In this document: positions 33,716-52,253 of the stretch, in pieces | How positions within the stretch are numbered: the stretch's first letter is position 1 | Layout: each line of letters begins with the position of its first letter | Source of the DNA: a virus | Direction: 5' to 3' (one strand) | IMG/VR virus record: IMGVR_UViG_3300025949_000016 | DNA length: 64,000 nucleotides | Program-made: the position numbers and the translations under genes | Notes under the pieces: model-generated | The model's input: only the letters and a program-made list of their open reading frames with translations | What the model was told of the DNA's origin: nothing | Databases searched by the model: none

Positions 33716-34641
33716 AAAAACTAATAGCTTTCTTACCCACTTGGATATTATTCTATACAGGTGATTTATTTTCAAGACTACCTTGGAAATGGAGCTGTAA
33801 TATATATAATTGGTGTATGCATATGTCCATTATTATACAAGATTGGGCTAAACTATCTAAGCCGTGGAAAAGAATAAATTAATATTTTATGAATACGATA
33901 GATCAAATAACTCTTGTTCAAACATGTGGAGCATGTCCAGAACAATATAATGCTTTTATTGATAATAAACAAGTAGGTTATTTACGTTTAAGATGGGGCT
34001 ACTTTAGAGTAGATTATCCTAATTGCTATGGAGAAACTATTTATGATGCAAATCCTAAAGGTGATGGTGAGTTCTATAATAATGAAAGAGAACATTATTT
34101 AACTGAGGCCAAACAAGCTATTATAAATCATTTAAATAATATAGAACCATGACCTCAGAAGCTTATGTACAATTGATTGAACCTGATGGTACACCTAATA
34201 TAATGGCCTTATTAAGTGAAGCTATTAAATGGTGCAAAGAAAACCCAGGTTGGTCTTGGAGATATCCTGAATTATAAAATTATTTATTATGCAACATACT
34301 ACTAGTTTTAACCGCAATTTAATGGACGGTAAAAGAAGAAATAAAGGTATTACTAAATATGGTAAGTATAAAAACTTATCAGAAAGATTAAAAGCTGAGG
34401 TTGAGGCTCGTCAACAATATGAGCAAAGAGTAAATAATCAAGAACCTAATAAAAAAGGCTTTTACGGTAATATAATTTAATAGTTTATGTTTACTATTGC
34501 TGGTTTAACATGGTTTGGTGTTTTACTAGGTAATATATTTTCTGCTATAATAGGTATATGTATAGGTAAATATTTAGCAGATTATATCGATAAGAAAGAA
34601 AAACAACAAAAAGATATTGATGATTTAATATCATAGATTAT

Positions 34642-34855
34642 TAATACTCAAACTCTTACCCTGCCTAGCCCAAGGGTAGCATTCCATAGACCTTAATATT
34701 AAACTACGATAGTCCCAAATTGAACTCGTATTGCAGTAAATTAGGATGTAACGGCGTAGACAAACAGTATTGGATACGAATAATACAGGATGTTTGTTAT
34801 TAAGTTAGGTGGTTAAATCGGGCAATGGACGATATGCATATGAGCTTGAGTATTA
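34642..34855 (+). ncRNA. candidate structured RNA
   Basis: TAATACTCAA-A-CTC / GAG-C-TTGAGTATTA closing stem; no ORF. Confidence 0.55.
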
Positions 34856-34856
34856 T

Positions 34857-35010
34857 AAAGAAAATAAGAATGTATTAACTCAGACTAGGATTATCCCTAA
34901 AGGGTAACAGAGGATGTTAATAATTAAATCTGAGGTTTAGAGTAGTGGAGTGGCCTAAAGCTACACATATTAAATCTCATAAACTATATACCGGAGTTCT
35001 TATTTTCTTT
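34857..35010 (+). ncRNA. candidate structured RNA
   Basis: AAAGAAAATAAGAAT/GTTCTTATTTTCTTT 15-bp closing stem with inner hairpins. Confidence 0.55.
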
Positions 35011-35017
35011 TAATTAC

Positions 35018-35159
35018 AAGTAATACAATAGTATGAGCAGCTCAGGGACGCCTGGAAGCATACTCTTAATCTACAATAAATGTAGCCGGTATCAAGATGC
35101 CGATTACCGTGGAATTAGTAGTAAACAGATATAACCACAATAGAGCTATTGTATTACTT
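35018..35159 (+). ncRNA. candidate multibranch structured RNA
   Basis: AAGTAATACAATAGT/GCTATTGTATTACTT stem; inner CTACA/TGTAG, CGGTATC/GATGCCG, GTGG/CCAC. Confidence 0.55.
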
Positions 35160-35248
35160 TATTTAAATTATTTAACTTTAGTCTTTATAGGCAGTTAGGT
35201 TGGTAAACAAAGAGGTTATTTCTATAGCCTCTTTTCTTTTTAACTTCT

Positions 35249-35462
35249 TATCTCTCTACACATCCTGGAGATAATTCTCACTAATAATAGACAGATTTGT
35301 TATAGTGAATTCTATACAAGGAGATAAATTATTAGTCTTCCCAGCAGGAGCTGTTGTAATAACCCGTGAGGGCTTAAGGAGTTAGGCGGGTGAGACTTTG
35401 ATCTCTATGAACCTTTGAAAGATAACGCAAACCTATCATTATAATAGTAGTGTAGAGAGATA
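35249..35462 (+). ncRNA. candidate structured RNA
   Basis: TATCTCTCTACAC/GTGTAGAGAGATA 13-bp stem; CCC-GTGA-GGG tetraloop. Confidence 0.55.
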
Positions 35463-36488
35463 TTTTTTAACCTTTAAATTTATTTGACATGGAATCCTTA
35501 TTAAATAAAGATCTTTCTCAATATACAGATGAACAAATAGTAGAAAGAATGAATGAAATTAAGGATATAGCAAAAGAATTTGAAGACTTATTAGATGAAA
35601 TGATGTGTAGAGAGCATTACCGAGAAAAAGAATATGATCCGCGTGATGAATGGCCCGAGCCTCTACCTTAACCTTTTAAACATGTATATATGAAAAAAAC
35701 TATTAAAGTAACCAAATACATAATAGGTGTGCTTATATATAGTGCAGTCATTTTTATGATTATAAAGGTATTTGGCATGCTTGGTAATATACATCAATAA
35801 CTAAACCCTTCAATAATGAAGAAGAACTTATTAAAAGCCGCACTTGTTATTTGCTATGTACCTTATTATTTATTTTCCATTCCTATAATTCTATTTGTTC
35901 TACCTTTTCAGGGCATAGAACATCTTATTGATCGAATAGAACACAAACTTTACATTCCTAAAAAAAATTAAAATACTACTTTCATACTTAGTATTTTAAT
36001 CCTCTCTGGCAGAAGGGGAGGTTAAACTGCCTGCTAATGTGAATGAAGGGTACCGAGTTGTAAGGGTTGTGGCTTTGTACCCATACGCACAGAGGGTGGG
36101 GATTTTTATCCTCACTCTCTAATTAAATCCCTTGAAATCTAGATAGAGGTTGAGAGAATTGTAGCGCTTGACTGTATTACAAGACTACTAATGTAGTTTA
36201 TATAAAGAGTGAAAGAGAGTGGGTTACGACTGTGCTGTTATTTCACTCTTTATGTAATACAGATATTTATTAATCATTAAAACTTATTTATTATGCTTAT
36301 TATTTGTATTCTTGGAGCAATACTTTTAGGAGCCTTGGCCAATGATTTTCTATGGAATTACATAGATAAGAAAAAATAAACCTTTTTATTATGAAATCCC
36401 TAAAATTTATAGAATATATAATACTATTTATAGTAATTATAATTATTATATCACTTGCTAGTATATTCTTATTCTAAACTAAACTCTT

Positions 36489-36569
36489 TGATACTTTGAT
36501 TATATCCAATTGCTGGTATTGAATCCTGAATTGGCAAGTAAGGTCGAACCTTGTATAATTGGAGTATCA
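36489..36569 (+). ncRNA. candidate three-way-junction RNA
   Basis: 16-bp stem TGATACTTTGATTATA/TATAATTGGAGTATCA with three G-U pairs; arms CCAATT/AATTGG and AAGGT/ACCTT. Confidence 0.55.
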
Positions 36570-36742
36570 TTAAGTTATAGCAACAGAAATAGCGCCAACC
36601 GAGTACAATTACACCGAAGAGGAGTCCATTTTGCAATATGGATGCTGGAGAACCAGTGCTACGAAAAGGGTATCGCGACAAAGCTATTGCTTTTTAACTT
36701 ATTAAGCTCCTATACACCTTATTGATAGATGAAGCCTTCGAT

Positions 36743-36872
36743 TCGTGGTTGGCAGAACTGGTAAATGCACCTGTCTAAACCCTAAAAATGGAGTATCTAT
36801 TTGGGCTAAAACGGGTTAGGTGACTGGATATTCTGTTACATCCTTCTATGAGTTCGAGTCTCATACTGCGAG
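36743..36872 (+). tRNA. tRNA-like RNA with an expanded anticodon arm and long variable arm (identity uncertain)
   Basis: acceptor TCGTGGT/ACTGCGA, D arm GCAG-AACTGGTAA-ATGC, T arm ATGAG-TTCGAGT-CTCAT; CCTGT/ACGGG stem encloses 36 nt. Confidence 0.55.
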
Positions 36873-36936
36873 GAGAAGAACGGATCAATAAGTGGGATTA
36901 TCCCTGTATAGGAGCTTATTTTTAAACTTCATTTTT

Positions 36937-43614: not shown

Positions 43615-45002
43615 TTCCAATTAAAAGCTGAATAAGGGAGGAGGTAACACTTCTCCCTTATTTATTACTAACGAAAATTACCATATGGTTTTTATATTAA
43701 TACTTATTATACTTTTTGGGTAGACTCGCTTTCAGTAATAAGTATTGTAAAGAGTGTAAATTGTAATTTTGAATCTTTGCCATGAACCTCTGTGTTTCTA
43801 CATGGAGGTTTTATTTTAAAACTTATTTTATGAGATATGAAAGAATAACTAGAAAACTAAAAGGAGAATTAATTGAATCACTTATTAAATCACCTCACTT
43901 TAATATCAATGATTTAGCCGTAGAGAGTGATAAGATGATTGACTGTTGGACTTTTTTATCCAAGAGTGAGCCTTATTTTGGTTATAGCTTAGAAAAAACT
44001 GAAACAGGAGAATTTTATGAATTCTTTTCAAATTAAACTATTATGATTCGAGAATTTTCACAGAAAAATAATATCTTTTACCTTGCTTTTTTAGTAGCAG
44101 AGTTAGATGATATAGGAAAAGATACACTTATTTACACGGCAAAAACCCGCCCAAAAGAGTTTCTAAATAAACTTATTCATACTCCTTTATTTGAATTACA
44201 CGAGTATTTAAAGAAGGTTGAAAAAGAAATGAAGAAAGAAACTAACAATGCATTAAATATTATTCTATATTCTTAACTTGTTAAACACTTATTATGCATG
44301 TAATTATAACGGTGGTTACTGTTCTTTACATTGTTATTAAATTCTTATTTAAAGCAGCTTATGCACCACCTAAGAGACATCGTTGATTAGTAGGCGTTGT
44401 TGACACATGGGGAGGTAGGTACAAAACTATCTCCCTTTCTTATTTATTTTAAAAATCACCATACATGAAAAATTTTATTGTCTTTTTACTCTTTTTTGTT
44501 GAATTTATCTTACTCTCTTGTTTTATTGGGTTTATTTGGTATTTAGCTGATAATGGAATGCCTTTTGCACACGTTCATTACCTTGAAAAAATGACCTCTG
44601 TACTTTTAGTAGTAATAGGACTAGCAGGTCCCGCAACTGCTGGAATATTTGTTGGCAACAGAATAAGTAAATTAATAGATTAAATTATATATATGACCAA
44701 AAGTAAATGGCTAAGAACAAAAAAGAATAATGGACCTCACGCTAAAGCAAGAAGAATTATTGCATTAGCAGCTCTTGAGAAACAACTTGAAATAATAAAT
44801 AATTCTATAACAAGAGATAAAGAAACAATAAAAGACTATAAAAATCCAAATAAAAAGCAAGTATTAGAAGAAGAATTTATAAAAAGAAATATATTAATTC
44901 TTGAGAAAGGCATTGAAAAAGATTATCCTAAGAAAATAGCAAGAATAAAGAAAGAAATTGAAATATTAAAAACAAGAATCTAATAATTAAAATCCGTATT
45001 TT

Positions 45003-45176
45003 ATGGCAGAAATGCAAAAAGTCCAATGTAACTGTGAAAATTCCTTCTTAGATAAGCAACTTGGCTCAGGTATAAGATGGGGAAATCCAACCGGAAAAAT
45101 GGATAAAGGAGATCTTTATCGTTGTGTTTCATGTGGAAAAGAACATAGTATCGTTAAACATCCAAAGAAAAAATAA
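45003..45176 (+). CDS. small Zn-ribbon-like protein (57 aa)
   Basis: manual translation MAEMQKVQCNC...YRCVSCGKEH. Confidence 0.6.
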   Translation: MAEMQKVQCNCENSFLDKQLGSGIRWGNPTGKMDKGDLYRCVSCGKEHSIVKHPKKK

Positions 45177-45199
45177 AATCTTTTAAACAAAAAACAAGT

Positions 45200-45550
45200 A
45201 TGATTAAAAAAACAATGTTTCTTTTGCTAGCAGCCGTGCTAGCTATTACTTATGTGAAAGGCCAACAAGTTCAGGTCTCTGGCTATGATACTGCTAAAAC
45301 AGGTTGTACCTACGTCATTAATCCACAAACTTTTGAATTAAAGAGTGGATATTTAATGAGAGTTACCGCCTATCAGTGGGATTATCAACCTGCCCAGGGA
45401 AATAAACAGAACGCAGACTCACTAACACTTGTGAAGGTTAAAAAACCAGTAGCCAATAGTTATTACCTGATCCGAGATTCAGCTAATAAAAGAATTTGGG
45501 TTAAGGTTCAACCTATACAAGATTTCAATGTTGACTTTACACTTAAGTAA
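45200..45550 (+). CDS. secreted hypothetical protein
   Basis: signal peptide ending VKG-Q. Confidence 0.6.
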   Translation: MIKKTMFLLLAAVLAITYVKGQQVQVSGYDTAKTGCTYVINPQTFELKSGYLMRVTAYQWDYQPAQGNKQNADSLTLVKVKKPVANSYYLIRDSANKRIWVKVQPIQDFNVDFTLK

Positions 45551-45584
45551 ACCCTTTTTATTAATTTTTCAATAATTGTTTTTT

Positions 45585-46220
45585 ATGGAACATCAAGCAA
45601 ACACCGAAAGCCTGAATTTAGAAGCACTCAAGAAACGTGATTACATTATCCTAGTGGATAAGAGTGGTTCTATGAGTGAAAGAGATTGTCCTAATAACAT
45701 GACGCGTTGGATGTATATGCAAGAAGAAGTTCTTGCCCTTACTCGCAAAGCGCTAGAGTGGGATGATAACGGTATTACTGTAGGAGTTTTCAATAACAAA
45801 TGGAAATTCTACGAAAATGTTAACAGTGAAGATGTAGTTAAGAAGATCTTTACTGAGAACGAGCCAAGCGGCACTACCAATACTGCAGGTGTACTCAACG
45901 AAGTTCTTAACACCTACTTGAACAATCGTGCTAATGCTAAACCCATTACAGTAGTAGTAGCTACAGATGGTCAACCTGATAGCAAGGATGAGCTTCGTAA
46001 GACAATCATTCACGCTGCTAATACTATTGAGCGCGATGAAGAGATTGGTATCTCTTTTGTTCAAATTGGTAAGAACGGTGAAGCCACCGCTTTCTTGAAA
46101 GAGTTGGATGATGATCTTCAGGGTGAAGGTGCTAAGTTTGACATTGTAGATTGTGTAACTTGTGATGAAATGGGTGATAAATCCATTACTGACATCCTTG
46201 TTGGCGCAGTTTGTGATTAA
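45585..46220 (+). CDS. von Willebrand factor A (vWA) domain protein
   Basis: MIDAS DKSGS, GTT, VATDGQP, FVQIG, LDDDL; ATG at 45585. Confidence 0.88.
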   Translation: MEHQANTESLNLEALKKRDYIILVDKSGSMSERDCPNNMTRWMYMQEEVLALTRKALEWDDNGITVGVFNNKWKFYENVNSEDVVKKIFTENEPSGTTNTAGVLNEVLNTYLNNRANAKPITVVVATDGQPDSKDELRKTIIHAANTIERDEEIGISFVQIGKNGEATAFLKELDDDLQGEGAKFDIVDCVTCDEMGDKSITDILVGAVCD

Positions 46221-46598
46221 TGATTAACAGTAAAGGGAGTGGTTTTCTATTTCTTTGATCTCTCCACTCCCTTTATCTTATAACTTTTAAATTTAATTTT
46301 ATGTGGTTTATAGTAGGTTTTATAATAGGTTGTGTTGTTGGTGTATTATATGGTAAGAAGATTGCAGCTAAAGCCGCTGAAAAAGCAGCTGAAATTGCTC
46401 AAAAAGCTAGTGATTTAAACAAAAAAGTACAAAGTAAATGACACCTTTAGTTTGGTTATTCTTCTTTTTAGCTTGTTTTTTCTCCTGGTATATTACACGT
46501 AAAATAACCGTCTTTTTAGAAAGAAGAAAGTTCAAATCTATTTTAAAAGATATTGATAAGACGCATGGAACTGCTTATCATAAATTTAGATACAACAA

Positions 46599-47255
46599 AT
46601 GATACAATCATTACTGATTATACTTAACTTGTTCCTGGTTGAAGTTAGTTTGAGTTTAGATAATTCTGCTGTCATATCACTGCTAGTAAAGAATTTACCA
46701 CCTAAAGATAGACGTAAAGGACTTACCTATGGTTTACTAGGAGCTTTCTTGTTTCGTGGACTGTCTTTATTTGTAGTAAACTGGCTAGTGAAACTATTCT
46801 ATTTAAAAATATTAGGAGGCCTTTACTTAATATGGCTAACATTTAAGTATAATAACGGTAATGATAAAATTATCAAAACGTATTCCAACTTATGGAGAGT
46901 TATACTAAGTGTTGAGATCATTGATTTAAGCCTCAGTTTAGATAATATTTTTGCTTGTGCTTCTTTAACTTCTAACATCTATCTAATATGGATAGGAGTC
47001 TTCTTAGGTATTATTGCTATGCGTTTTGTAGCAAGTTGGTTTACTATTTTACTTAACAAATATCCTTACTTAGAAACCGCAGCTTATTGGGTTATATTCT
47101 TACTAGGCTTAAAATTAATTATAGAAGGTATAGGTAAATGGATTAATCCTACTTTCTATATATCTGAAACGATTAATTTTATATTTAGTGGAGTAAATAT
47201 GGTTATATTTTTATTACCTATTATATTTAATAAAAATGGAAAAGATAAATCTTGA
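46599..47255 (+). CDS. terC: TerC-family integral membrane protein
   Basis: EVSLSLDNSAVI, GLLGAFLFR, IDLSLSLDNIFA, GIIAMRF, YPYLE. Confidence 0.88.
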   Translation: MIQSLLIILNLFLVEVSLSLDNSAVISLLVKNLPPKDRRKGLTYGLLGAFLFRGLSLFVVNWLVKLFYLKILGGLYLIWLTFKYNNGNDKIIKTYSNLWRVILSVEIIDLSLSLDNIFACASLTSNIYLIWIGVFLGIIAMRFVASWFTILLNKYPYLETAAYWVIFLLGLKLIIEGIGKWINPTFYISETINFIFSGVNMVIFLLPIIFNKNGKDKS

Positions 47256-47493
47256 TAAGATATTAAGCGATGTTGGTTATATAGGTCCAAGAGATGATGA
47301 CAAAGAATTAAATAATATGCCAATGTCATTAATAAAAGAATTAATGAAAGAAACTGCTAAAAAAGCCTTACAATTAGCTGCGGATAATGCAACAGCTACA
47401 GCTCATGAAGATTCAAGTGATTATGGAACAGGAAAAATATGGGCTACAATAGACAAGCAAAGTATACTTTCAATTGAAAAACTTATTGAATAA
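47236..47493 (+). CDS. hypothetical protein, paralog of 37181-37414
   Basis: see shared motifs under 37181. Confidence 0.7.
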   Translation: MEKINLDKILSDVGYIGPRDDDKELNNMPMSLIKELMKETAKKALQLAADNATATAHEDSSDYGTGKIWATIDKQSILSIEKLIE

Positions 47494-47520
47494 TATTAAC
47501 TACTCTGTGAAAACTAAAAT

Positions 47521-47592
47521 GGTTCCATAACACAATGGTTAGTGTAATCGCCTTCTAAGCGATCTATTCCAGTTCGACCCTGGATGGAACTT
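47521..47592 (+). tRNA. tRNA-Arg(UCU)
   Basis: canonical cloverleaf; ATCGC-CT TCT AA-GCGAT; T loop TTCGACC; no encoded CCA. Confidence 0.9.
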
Positions 47593-48070
47593 CAAAAATA
47601 AATTTGGTAGTTTAGTTGCTTTCAGAGCAGAAAAATATAAATTCAAGATAATTCTTGATACTGTATCAGTTATTAATAACTCTATTGATATAGTAGAAAA
47701 AGTAAATTATAATCTAACTTATAATGAAATTAACAAGTTATGACAGATAAACAATTTCTAACTAAACTAGAAAAGAAATTTCCATATGCCTATTCTTTAA
47801 TTCCAAAGATTATGTGGATATGGATATTCAATAATCTTTATAATGACAAAGTAATAAAATAAAGCTTATGTTTATAGAAATAGATGGATTTATAATCAAC
47901 AGTCATTATATTAAAAGAACATCAGATATATTTAAAATGCCACTTGCTAGTACAAGAGCTTTTAACATATACATTGTGGATTCAGAACCAGTAACAATTA
48001 AAGGTACTGAAGAAGAAATTCTTATTAAGCACAAGAAATTACAAAAAATCTTAATAACTAGAAAAGTAAA

Positions 48071-48547
48071 ATGAAACTCGCTGTTATTGGAGAAAACTTT
48101 CAGTTCTTACAAGAAGAGTGTTATTCTGGAGAAAGATCTGTCAAGATTAACAGTCTACTCACTGATTATTTAATGGACTATAAAAATGTGGTTTGTGTTA
48201 CTAATTTAGATCCTGGCGTTGGGTTTATCTGGTCTTATTTAGCTATTGAAGAAAATCTTCCTTTAGTTGGTATAATACCTACTTCTAATTTTTCTACAGA
48301 TTTCTGCGCATTAGATGAAGGATTATATAAAGAAATGATTGGATATAAGAATATGGAACTGCTTATTTATGGTTCAGGAGATGTTACAGAATATAAGAAA
48401 GAAAATAGAAACCGCCACATTATCTATAATTCTGATATTACTTTATTATTAGGCAGTAGTACGATTATTAAAAACTTAAGTCATTACGCCAATTATTTAA
48501 AAAAAGAAATTATTACTATTTCTACTGAACAAATACTTAAATTATGA
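48071..48547 (+). CDS. divergent SLOG/YspA-like protein
   Basis: MKLAVIG, LDPGVG..W..LA, RNRHIIYNSD align loosely with ORF 38412. Confidence 0.55.
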   Translation: MKLAVIGENFQFLQEECYSGERSVKINSLLTDYLMDYKNVVCVTNLDPGVGFIWSYLAIEENLPLVGIIPTSNFSTDFCALDEGLYKEMIGYKNMELLIYGSGDVTEYKKENRNRHIIYNSDITLLLGSSTIIKNLSHYANYLKKEIITISTEQILKL

Positions 48548-49546
48548 AATATTATTTACCGTATGTTTGTGTTATTTTAGCTTGTTTTGTAGATTGGAAA
48601 CTAGCACTTATTATAGTAGGAGCTTACCGGTTATTAGTAGGAGGTGGTGTAGAAATAGCTACTATTATAAAACTACAAAAAGATAACAAATACATGATTT
48701 GGTTTACCAAAGAATCCAAAACTATTATTGGTGAAATTGGACAATTAAAAAAAGAGATATTAGAGATAGCAAATCTGTATAGTATAAGAGAACCTTATTT
48801 TGAGCAGTTTTACTATAAAGAAGAACTCTTATTTTCTTATGATTATAGTAATAAAAAGTTAATCCGCAGCTATACAGGTAATGATGAGCAAATTTTACCT
48901 ATTTTTAATAATATAGACTTAGGTATTAAGATACATGATTTTTGCGTATTAGCAGATGAAAAAGAAAAACTGCTATCTAGAAACTTTGATCATATTCAAG
49001 GAACTAATAAATTTCAATTTTTATTGCATACTATAAGCCATAATTGTTTTATGTATTTAGGAGTAATTGAATTAAATATGTTCTGTATTTATAGAAATTT
49101 CTCTTTTATGGAATCTCTTCTTTTATTATTGTGCTATTTAATCCCCATGAATTATGAAAAAGACCCACAAAAAATTTATAAAAAAGCTTAGAAAATATCT
49201 TAAGGATGCTCCTGATTTGCGTGTAACTCAGGCGCTATATAATTTAGGTGTAACGCTTGGAATAAGGAAAGGCACTGAACTCAAACCAGAATACTACTTT
49301 ATAGATAATTATAATGAGACGGATGAAGTAATTCTAAAAAGAATGAAAAACTTTTTAAAACATGGGAAGAAGCAAAAGATCGAGAAACGGATCGAGGAAG
49401 AAATACAATCATCCACCGGAGGTAATACTCAAGAAGGAGAGTAAAGAATTTATTGAAAGTGGTGGAGAACTTGTGCCTTTATCTCTTTATGGCACAAAAG
49501 TACTCGATTATAATAAAACCCGAGATTTATTAAAGAAATCAAAATA

Positions 49547-49827
49547 ATTGGTATAAATAAAGAGTGAGATAAGTAATAATAATTTCAATCAAGTCTGAGG
49601 ATAGTACAGAACAACGATTGATTAGTTGACCAAGTAGTCTCAATAGAAAGCTTCTATATGTATTAGTCTTTCTAGGTGGATGAACGTGATATGAAAATGA
49701 ACTAAGTAGGTGCGTTTTAACTCCTCATTATGGATAGAAAGATAGTCTTATCGTGAGGTAGGAGCATGACTCCAGTAATAGGTGAAATATTTTGCGGTGG
49801 TCGACTTGTCTCACTCTTTATACCAAT
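49547..49827 (+). ncRNA. candidate structured RNA (~280 nt)
   Basis: TAAAGAGTGAGATAAGT/ACTTGTCTCACTCTTTA 17-bp stem extended by ATTGGTAT/ATACCAAT; TCTTATC-GTGA-GGTAGGA. Confidence 0.6.
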
Positions 49828-50096
49828 GCCTTTAAACTTATTTTTTTTATGGAACAATTTGAAGTTATTTGTGTAAATACAGATACAATAGAAAAAGATG
49901 GAATTTTTTGTACTCCTCATTTATTAAAAAAAGGTAAAATTTATATAGTAGTTGGAAAAGCATTTATAGGTCCTAAAAATTTTCCAGCATATAAAGTAAA
50001 TGATAAATCTGGAAATATAGTAGGATGCGCTCTAATAGAGCGGTTTATTAAACTAGAAAACATAGATGATTTAATTAATAATATAATTACAGAACC

Positions 50097-50498
50097 ATGT
50101 GTGGAAAAATTAAAGCGGGAAATTCCCTTGTTGAGCCCGGAGCGGGTTTAGTAATTCATTATAATGGTGGTACAGATTATAAAAAATGGGGACCTCAACC
50201 ATATAACGCTAAACTTGAAAATCTTAATGGCTACTGGAAAACATTTAATAGAGGCTACATAAAAGTTGATGGATTTTATGAAAAAGATAGTCTATTTGTA
50301 TTACCAACTAACGAACCACTAAATCTCGCAATTATTTATAATATTCATGGATTTGCCATTGTTACTATGTCCTCTAAAGGCACTATAGTAGAAAAAGTTC
50401 ATCATAGAACCGCCGTTATATTATTTAAACCTGAATATTTTTTAAATAGAAAGAATATATGGGGAGGAGATTATTCTCGTTTAATTCAGGTAGCTTAA
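50097..50498 (+). CDS. minimal SRAP/HMCES (YedK-like) protein
   Basis: N-terminal MCG, DGFYE, VHHRTAVIL (cf. HxRMPVIL). Confidence 0.7.
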   Translation: MCGKIKAGNSLVEPGAGLVIHYNGGTDYKKWGPQPYNAKLENLNGYWKTFNRGYIKVDGFYEKDSLFVLPTNEPLNLAIIYNIHGFAIVTMSSKGTIVEKVHHRTAVILFKPEYFLNRKNIWGGDYSRLIQVA

Positions 50499-51806: not shown

Positions 51807-52166
51807 GGGGCATATTGGTATAGATCCGGAGCGTAGATGGAATAGGCATGCAAGCGGGATGATTTATTACCGCTTTGACAAATTAGAATCAACAACAAAT
51901 GCAAGCTCTAATAAAGCTTCGAGAATTAGCAAAGGTGACGCAGTATTGCGTAGTATTTTTGCTGACGTAGAATTGGAAATGGCTGCGTAATAGCCTGTAC
52001 ATCCCAGTAATCTCAACTGTAAAAAGGAGATAGTGAACTTGTTACTATGATTAGCTAGAAGAATATCAAGTAAATATTTTGCTGATTTAGAAAAATCTTC
52101 AAGCATGTAACTTATAAAGTTGAAACATTCGGAGACACCGAGTTCGATTCTTGGTATGCTCCACCA
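51807..52166 (+). ncRNA. ssrA: tmRNA
   Basis: GGGGCAT/ATGCTCC-ACCA acceptor with G3-U, T arm CCGAG-TTCGATT-CTTGG, tag frame ASSNKASRISKGDAVLRSIFADVELEMAA* at 51901-51990. Confidence 0.92.
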
Positions 52167-52224
52167 ATTCAGCCTCCATGAAGGTTTAACTTTTTGAGTC
52201 ATGGTATATTCGGTTTCAGCCAAT

Positions 52225-52253
52225 AGCCCTTAGAGAAATCTAGGGGCTTTTTT
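52225..52253 (+). terminator. terminator downstream of tmRNA
   Basis: AGCCCTTAGA-GAAA-TCTAGGGGCT-TTTT. Confidence 0.75.

Follow-up and report, generated by a model that had tools for sequence, protein, structure and literature searches.

The window, as we call the whole 64,000-nt (64-kb) stretch of DNA analysed here, derives from a phage genome of approximately 148 kb and about 30% GC (IMG/VR record IMGVR_UViG_3300025949_000016). The late genes occupy 1 to 30 kb on the minus strand and, according to PHROG matches, encode among other proteins the portal, the large terminase, the major head protein and a ribonucleotide reductase; many small early genes lie on the plus strand from 30 to 62 kb. 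The terminase is approximately 27% identical to those of Bacteroides, Flavobacterium and Cellulophaga crAss-like phages. The relatives that we found come from soil and rhizosphere metagenomes; the closest in IMG/VR is G001 (147.9 kb, ribonucleotide reductase 77% identical), and another, G004 (IMGVR_UViG_3300022917_000008), shares 50%, 43% and 47% identity with the portal, terminase and major capsid proteins of the window, respectively. An earlier note on this DNA had held that the window reads in the standard code and had proposed a search of late genes for in-frame TAG. The first point is borne out, as TAG is an ordinary stop that terminates 11 of 94 open reading frames and the genes for portal, terminase and capsid run uninterrupted in code 11; the late genes give no sign of needing read-through. 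The 46 early-strand open reading frames that we scanned (29865-63550) include genes for a sigma-70 region 4 protein, a YpsA/SLOG plus DprA-like protein, a SRAP-like protein and a vWA-TerC pair, and for the lipoprotein encoded next to the element described below, four protein clusters were found.

That element lies on the plus strand, in the sense orientation with the early genes, and is built on a long carrier hairpin that occurs once per genome. The 5' arm of the carrier (36703-36736) comprises the 5' strand of an outer stem, P1 (36703-36716), a C at 36717, the 5' strand of an inner stem, P2 (36718-36726), an internal loop, AGATGAAG (36727-36734), and CC at 36735-36736. The 3' arm (36880-36923) begins with ACGG and continues with the 3' strand of P2 (36884-36892), a side hairpin, GGGATTATCCC (36894-36904), the 3' strand of P1 (36905-36918) and a terminal T run (36919-36923). 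P1 contains 14 base pairs, all of them Watson-Crick, and P2 contains 9, so that the outer stem, side hairpin, inner stem, conserved internal loop and U run together make up a scaffold of approximately 85 nt. The 231-nt stretch has a folding energy of -69.6 kcal/mol (z = -3.8), which none of 200 shuffled sequences equals. The carrier is absent from 185,579 bacterial species genomes (GTDB, one genome per species), and a covariance-model search of Rfam gave no significant family for the window or for three carrier variants with short tips (L002, L022 and L024). K-turn, hammerhead and twister-like readings of the internal loop were also considered and rejected by eye, given that the key G varies (G/T) and that core motifs are lacking.

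The tip of the hairpin holds a tRNA-like body (36743-36872, plus strand), which was delimited by ARAGORN in intron mode, by shuffles and by a leucine signature. Its acceptor stem (36743-36749/36865-36871; 7 bp, including two G-U pairs) is followed by U8 and G9, a D arm (36752-36768), A26 at 36769 and the 5' strand of an anticodon stem within 36770-36775. Nucleotide 32 is at 36776 and nucleotides 33-38 are at 36816-36821, with the anticodon TAG at 36817-36819; thereafter come the 3' strand of the anticodon stem, GACTG (36822-36826), a variable region (36827-36847), a T arm with the loop TTCGAGT (36848-36864) and a discriminator G (36872). The acceptor, D and T stems are completely paired (7/7, 3/3 and 5/5), and U8, A14, R15, G18, G19, A21 and Y48, as well as G53, T54, T55, C56, R57, A58 and C61, are all in place. 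Because these three arms and every elbow nucleotide have been kept, the body should fold into the L-shape of a tRNA. The stems and arms described in the earlier note are thus all present, with the tRNA body inside a double stem.

ARAGORN in its default mode found no tRNA at the element, and in the intron mode that had been suggested as a check it called one at 36742-36873. Intron-mode calls were rare in dinucleotide shuffles of the whole 64-kb window (0 of 60 and 2 of 400, or 2 of 460), indicating that the likeness to a tRNA is real. The Rfam tRNA model RF00005 gave no match at E values up to 10 in an 801-nt slice and none on the whole window, and a leucine covariance model of our own returned split, weak matches of 14.5 and 12.8 bits that did not tell the two possible readings of the anticodon stem apart. 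No homolog of this cargo was found in IMG/VR, the JGI metagenomes or INPHARED, and the cargo is known from a single sequence; the searches comprised an exact D-arm pattern in IMG/VR, gapped D-loop/T-loop patterns at inserted and normal spacing, and blastn against INPHARED and a relative's genome.

The anticodon loop is interrupted by an insert of 39 nt (36777-36815) between tRNA positions 32 and 33. Most of the insert is a hairpin capped by GTA, as the earlier note had described (36780-36805; CCC 36780-36782 and AAATGGA 36786-36792 facing TCTATTT 36796-36802 and GGG 36803-36805), and its tail pairs with the exon in the helix CCTGT/ACGGG (36770-36774/36811-36815). Nothing supports the idea that the GTA cap acts as an anticodon. 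When the 39 nt are removed, the loop reads T|TTAGGT, that is TTTAGGT, with the leucine anticodon UAG. In the earlier note, an insert of 29 nt was proposed instead, the removal of which literally leaves the amber loop CTCTAAA, but real tRNAs favor the longer insert. As a test of leucine identity that is independent of ARAGORN, we searched 185,579 prokaryotic species, each represented by a single genome, for the D loop GAACTGGTAAA together with the T loop GTTCGAGTC at normal class II spacing. These loops are common to 28 GTDB tRNAs, 24 of which are tRNA-Leu and 19 tRNA-Leu(TAG), and most of the Leu(TAG) matches have the anticodon loop TTTAGGT, exactly as the window does once the 39 nt are deleted. 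From U8 to A26 the body aligns collinearly with bacterial Leu(TAG) genes, one pair of the D stem having changed from G-C to A-T in a compensatory manner, and G004 carries a normal tRNA-Leu(UAG) of its own with the same T loop. Judged by sequence, then, the gene in the tip derives from tRNA-Leu(UAG), and the amber-suppressor identity assigned to it previously does not survive this comparison.

At the splice junction, the leucine model would give CCTGTCT|TTAGGTGAC and the amber model CCTGTCT|CTAAAACGGG. The insert had been judged too short for a group I intron, and we agree: such introns have approximately 200 nt or more with a P3-P9 core, and the 39-nt insert matched no Rfam intron. The insert occurs only once, with no other copy in the window or the relatives, so that in the available data it is not a repeated mobile hairpin. 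A 9-mer, TGGAGTATC, is common to the insert and the upstream hairpin, which is probably due to chance given that GGAGTAT is common in the window.

The body also departs from real leucine tRNAs in several respects. Its discriminator is G73 (36872), whereas all 16 aligned leucine tRNAs have A (the invariant A82 of the alignment); A73 is the main identity element for leucyl-tRNA synthetase. The first pair of the acceptor stem is U1-A72 and the two G-U pairs in this stem are adjacent, the anticodon stem contains a T.T mismatch and one extra nucleotide, and the variable arm is unusual in having a 10-nt loop. When the cloverleaf arms are enforced, folding of the unspliced RNA gives -29.7 kcal/mol with the CCUGU/ACGGG helix versus -26.2 kcal/mol with the leucine stem. 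The preferred unspliced fold is a five-armed shape, and the anticodon loop of the primary transcript has 36 or 46 nt, depending on which stem forms, rather than the 7 nt that a 5-bp stem encloses in a tRNA. With the 5' strand of the anticodon stem taken up by the 3' end of the insert, a 7-nt anticodon loop is missing from the unspliced RNA, and we consider the RNA to be probably non-decoding.

Comparison with relatives, which the earlier note had recommended for homologs lacking the insert, gave a different outcome: the scaffold is retained, but its tip is unrelated and the whole tRNA-like cargo is missing. The carrier hairpin is nearly unchanged in six related phage contigs, at approximately 95-100% identity; in these, both arms are 91-100% identical to those of the window by blastn (91-100% for the 5' arm and 94-100% for the 3' arm), and core patterns of 23 and 26 nt in the 5' arm are exact in all of them. 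The arms of G004 are approximately 95% identical to those of the window, despite only 43-50% identity in the portal, terminase and major capsid proteins. In G001, the same hairpin occupies the syntenic place and has 19 nt instead of the 143-nt tip of the window. Pattern scans of IMG/VR and the JGI metagenomes yielded 13 carrier loci, four of which are the same contigs present in both collections; a search with the 3'-arm pattern returned the four IMG/VR contigs already found. Six types of cargo, of 19, 39, 51, 83, 129 and 143 nt, lie between the near-identical arms; they are mutually dissimilar, and that of the window is the only one resembling a tRNA. A T run follows the carrier in five of the six variants, and in G004 a tRNA-Met gene begins after 8 nt instead. 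The flanks on both sides of the element differ between phages. Given that related phages have a near-identical hairpin with unrelated sequence at its tip, the hairpin is more suggestive of a conserved RNA scaffold whose cargo can be exchanged than of a spliced suppressor of stop codons. The scaffold, being the conserved part, is the part under selection, and the cargo of the window is dispensable for the scaffold, as relatives do without it.

The few substitutions in the carrier fit an RNA on the plus strand. In the 3' arm of G001, one pair of the side hairpin is changed from G-C to A-T and one pair of P2 to G-U on the plus strand, which on the minus strand would be A.C. This G-U and the compensatory pair, together with the G-U pairs in the acceptor stem and in the alternative helix of the window, are consistent with selection at the RNA level on the plus strand. 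Because the arms hardly vary, the structural support from covariation rests on two positions.

A second conserved hairpin, U (36480-36582, plus strand), lies approximately 120 nt upstream of the carrier and is upstream of it in every related contig that captures both. Its arms (36480-36511 and 36540-36582) are 92-97% identical in related contigs and its center is variable. Across the 30-48 kb early region, the arms of the carrier and those of hairpin U are the only nucleotide conservation common to several relatives; G001 alone has three further short matches, of 27-50 nt, at 37.3-37.9 kb. Hairpin U contains a sigma-70-like match on the plus strand, TTGGCA (36531-36536) and TATAAT (36554-36559) separated by 17 nt, that agrees at 11 of 12 positions and is a putative promoter. 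Hairpin U may thus be a promoter or 5' module of the transcription unit of the carrier. Between the two lies a clamped hairpin (36579-36698, plus strand) that ends in a T run (36692-36696); it is not conserved, and relatives have a small open reading frame or other sequence in its place. More broadly, 34640-36700 holds a run of other stem-clamped non-coding modules, several of which end in TTTTTAAC (this sequence occurs at 35237, 35464, 36691 and 43059), and, unlike the carrier, they have no nucleotide-level counterpart in the relatives compared.

The earlier note had suggested a search for RtcB or an RNA ligase. No such gene turned up: the 46 early-strand open reading frames of the window matched 13 Pfam families, among which there was no RNA ligase, nuclease or kinase-phosphatase, and both the splicing endonuclease EndA (PF01974) and RtcB (PF01139) are absent from G001-G004 (two complete and two partial genomes). 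A gene for Ro60 (TROVE) is likewise absent from these four relatives and from the 46 early-strand open reading frames of the window. The control genome of Bacteroides thetaiotaomicron carries RtcB, and belongs to the phylum that is infected by crAss-like phages.

A separate observation concerns G004, the minus strand of which carries, at approximately 43,900-50,300 (locus L034 3900-10300), a cluster of aberrant genes of tRNA type. In one of these, an otherwise perfect tRNA(CAU) (44396-44514), an insert of approximately 47 nt lies at 26/27, and in a tRNA(UUG)-like gene (44002-44121) the insert is 46 nt long and falls within the anticodon stem at 28/29. A class II-like gene (45475-45575) has a 7-bp stem and a loop of 13 nt, and another gene (44717-44791) has a loop of 9 nt. 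Two more are circularly permuted, in the order T arm, 3' strand of the acceptor stem, linker, 5' strand of the acceptor stem, D arm and anticodon arm, and one of the two is called as tRNA-Lys(CUU) by ARAGORN after re-ordering. The two large inserts and one permuted gene share a hairpin or closing stem followed by TA(G/T)AAT and 10-15 nt, and the motif CTTAGAAT occurs 11 times on the minus strand within 6 kb, at least five times directly before the 3' part of a tRNA. RtcB, EndA and TROVE were not found in the G004 genome, and a Pfam scan of the open reading frames around the cluster showed only an HNH endonuclease, a kinase and phosphatases. We found no paper on permuted tRNA genes or on short protein-spliced tRNA introns in bacteriophages. 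Elsewhere in G004, a 74-nt class I tRNA of amber-suppressor type, with the anticodon CTA (83117-83190), is unrelated to the body in the window, and the portal, terminase, capsid and three other genes align to the window proteins without an in-frame stop. G004 has 23 normal tRNAs, G001 has two and the window has one, which indicates that tRNA sets have been gained and lost in the clade.

In our best, but still tentative, reading of these observations, a non-decoding, tRNA-shaped domain would be an exchangeable and functional cargo on the conserved scaffold of an early RNA. The element would be a single RNA of the early strand, composed of two parts with different histories, a scaffold and an exchangeable tip. 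The scaffold would be the selected part, its sequence preserved nearly unchanged throughout a clade of crAss-like phages from soil. We infer that transcription starts at the promoter-like site in hairpin U and ends at the U run of the scaffold, which would then act as a terminator as well. The long scaffold stem may clamp and protect both ends of the RNA and so make it stable, or may serve as a processing stem or a handle for a protein. The tip of the window would be displayed as a tRNA-shaped domain that does not decode but is still recognizable by tRNA-binding proteins, for which RNase P, modification enzymes and tRNA-targeting host nucleases are candidates; a domain with these properties could act as a mimic or decoy. 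The many defects of the body, however, are also to be expected of a decaying pseudogene.

The last point leads to an account of the tip as a passenger: a tRNA-Leu(UAG) gene, part of a phage tRNA set that was formerly larger, would have landed, or been left, in the loop of a terminator-like hairpin that tolerates extra sequence, where it was inactivated by the 39-nt insertion and by point changes and is now decaying without function. We regard this course of events as unlikely, if still deserving serious consideration. It would explain why the cargo position accepts anything from 19 to 143 nt and why G73, the stem mismatch, the G-U pairs and the odd variable arm occur together, and it fits the turnover of tRNA sets in the clade (23, 2 and 1) and the presence of orphan T-arm/acceptor fragments in non-coding gaps of the window. 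Decay is harder to reconcile with D, T and acceptor arms that are fully paired, with all elbow and tertiary positions intact, in a genome of 30% GC; with an insert that forms a clean hairpin and has a tail pairing with the exon; with an acceptor stem that sits exactly at the tip, coaxial with the scaffold; or with the significant stability of the fold (z = -3.8). The alternatives of a relic and of a tRNA mimic, both raised in the earlier note, are retained, but for an RNA descended from tRNA-Leu and not from a suppressor. That the element might be a genuine interrupted tRNA-Leu(UAG), from which a 39-nt intron at 32/33 is removed by an as yet undescribed phage or host route of cutting and rejoining, with the scaffold stem as a processing stem and a product that decodes CUN, seems improbable to us. 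We retain it because the 39-nt deletion is exact, restoring the Leu(UAG) loop and a 5-bp stem that has two compensatory pairs relative to bacterial leucine tRNAs, because the tail of the insert pairs with the exon, as in eukaryotic and archaeal pre-tRNAs, and because of the aberrant cluster of G004, with its 46-48-nt inserts at 26/27 and 28/29 and its circularly permuted tRNA-Lys; the RtcB of B. thetaiotaomicron could also be counted in its favor. Against it are G73 in place of the leucine identity nucleotide A73, the T.T mismatch and extra nucleotide in the anticodon stem, junctions without an evident bulge-helix-bulge geometry, the lack of an endonuclease or ligase in the 46 early open reading frames of the window and in four relatives, and the fact that closely related phages are missing the gene altogether.

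Two further accounts fare worse. An amber-suppressor tRNA (CUA) with a 29-nt insert, either conditionally spliced or inactivated, is hardly credible, and its conditional splicing, as put forward in the earlier note, is unlikely. Deletion of 36777-36805 does yield a classic suppressor loop, CTCTAAA, on a 5-bp stem that forms the most stable local helix, and G004 encodes a tRNA(CTA), but the latter is a 74-nt class I tRNA of a different kind, and the deletion leaves a variable region of 32 nt and ignores the exact Leu(UAG) loop located just downstream. The D and T loops carry the leucine signature, and a phage in which TAG normally ends 11 of 94 open reading frames has no need of read-through in its late genes. 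It is also highly improbable that the arms act at the level of DNA, as inverted-repeat sites for a recombinase or transposase or as recombination linkers at module borders, in a hairpin that is never a functional RNA. Such a role would account for arms that are conserved in sequence and not in pairing alone, for their position on either side of segments swapped between phages and for the differences in both flanks of the element. The carrier, however, has one copy per genome, no target-site duplication and no adjacent recombinase; it is oriented in the sense of the early genes, has a U run behind it in five of the six variants and is absent from 185,579 bacterial species genomes, and the change in G001 gives a G-U pair on the plus strand but A.C on the other.

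In comparison with a class II tRNA-Leu(UAG), the body retains the 7-bp acceptor stem, U8 and G9, a 3-bp D stem with the loop GAACTGGTAAA, A26, the anticodon loop TTTAGGT (with 39 nt removed), a long variable region and the T loop TTCGAGT; it differs by the 39-nt insert at 32/33, G73, U1-A72, two acceptor G-U pairs, the mismatch and extra nucleotide of the anticodon stem and the 10-nt loop of the variable arm, and it is missed by standard models. It resembles intron-containing tRNA genes in that an insert in a leucine anticodon loop pairs in part with the exon and its removal restores a canonical loop. Known tRNA introns are of the bulge-helix-bulge type in archaea and eukaryotes and of the group I type in bacteria, for example in tRNA-Leu(UAA). 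The insert of the window, at only 39 nt and at position 32/33 rather than the canonical 37/38 site, differs from these; no bulge-helix-bulge motif was found at the insert, and neither EndA nor RtcB was found in the phage clade. Short conserved stem-loops are also present between early genes in the PeSL cassettes of T4-type phages and the RNase III sites of T7, where they border swapped modules; here, by contrast, the two conserved pieces form a stem together, what is swapped is the tip of that same hairpin, and there is one copy per genome.

The nearest functional analogy appears to be with YrlA and Y RNAs, the partners of Ro60/Rsr, in which a tRNA-shaped module is carried on a long, conserved end-to-end stem. 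YrlA shares with the element the design of a conserved stem and a variable module, occurs in phages and is recognized by RNase P and tRNA-modifying enzymes (Chen et al. 2014, PMC4201824; Rfam RF02553). In YrlA, however, the long stem is at the anticodon side and the acceptor stem is capped, whereas in the window the stem extends the acceptor stem. RF02553 and RF00019 did not match the window or three carrier variants at E values up to 10, and no GNCGAA motif was seen in the element. In the crAss-like phage phi14:2, early non-coding RNAs of unknown function are abundantly expressed and stable (Drobysheva et al., doi 10.1101/2020.03.07.982082). These have no sequence relation to the element, and no fold, tRNA-like part or conserved scaffold has been reported for them. 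Both they and the element lie in gene-free stretches of the early arm and are oriented with the early genes.

Two proposals would reach beyond this phage, and we think it distinctly doubtful that one or the other is correct. Either the carrier represents a novel type of conserved RNA scaffold in phages and its tRNA-Leu-shaped cargo a functional decoy, or members of this clade process interrupted and permuted tRNAs by cutting and rejoining them, through a route not known from bacteria. With a decoy, the scaffold would be a handle for a protein or for a processing or stabilizing machine, cargoes would be swapped as hosts change, and the target would be a tRNA-binding host factor such as a defense nuclease. 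If the scaffold really does carry exchangeable cargo, these phages would have a modular means of making small structured RNAs at an early stage of infection, much like the artificial 'tRNA scaffold' trick turned around, and phage-host adaptation would gain a new axis in the exchange of cargo. An RNA with the shape of a tRNA but no decoding role would join a growing list of phage tRNA mimics and of tRNAs with altered anticodon loops. Even if the tip is only a relic, its leucine ancestry corrects the tempting but wrong annotation of a suppressor with a mini-intron. The cluster of G004, for its part, suggests that non-canonical tRNA architectures may be common in this little-studied soil branch of crAss-like phages.

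Other unusual tRNA-like sequences were encountered within the window and elsewhere. Three gene-free gaps of the window (51991-52276, 55703-56126 and 59128-59375) each contain a T-arm-like hairpin, giving orphan T-arm/acceptor fragments at about 52138, 55942 and 59308. In two of the three, an acceptor-like 3' strand follows the hairpin, one of these ending in ...ATGCTCC-A-CCA at approximately 52155-52166, and a 5' strand that matches in part is present in two; no tRNA is called in any of the three. These fragments could be tRNA relics or more non-canonical tRNA-like RNAs. The searches for homologs of the cargo, in addition, turned up two unrelated phage contigs, L042 (IMGVR_UViG_3300037346_000419) and L043 (IMGVR_UViG_3300020160_002689), with odd tRNA-like genes that have good acceptor, D and T arms and 40-60 extra nucleotides in the anticodon/variable region; the gene in L043 lies inside a tRNA array, and that in L042 has ACAGCAG near the T arm.
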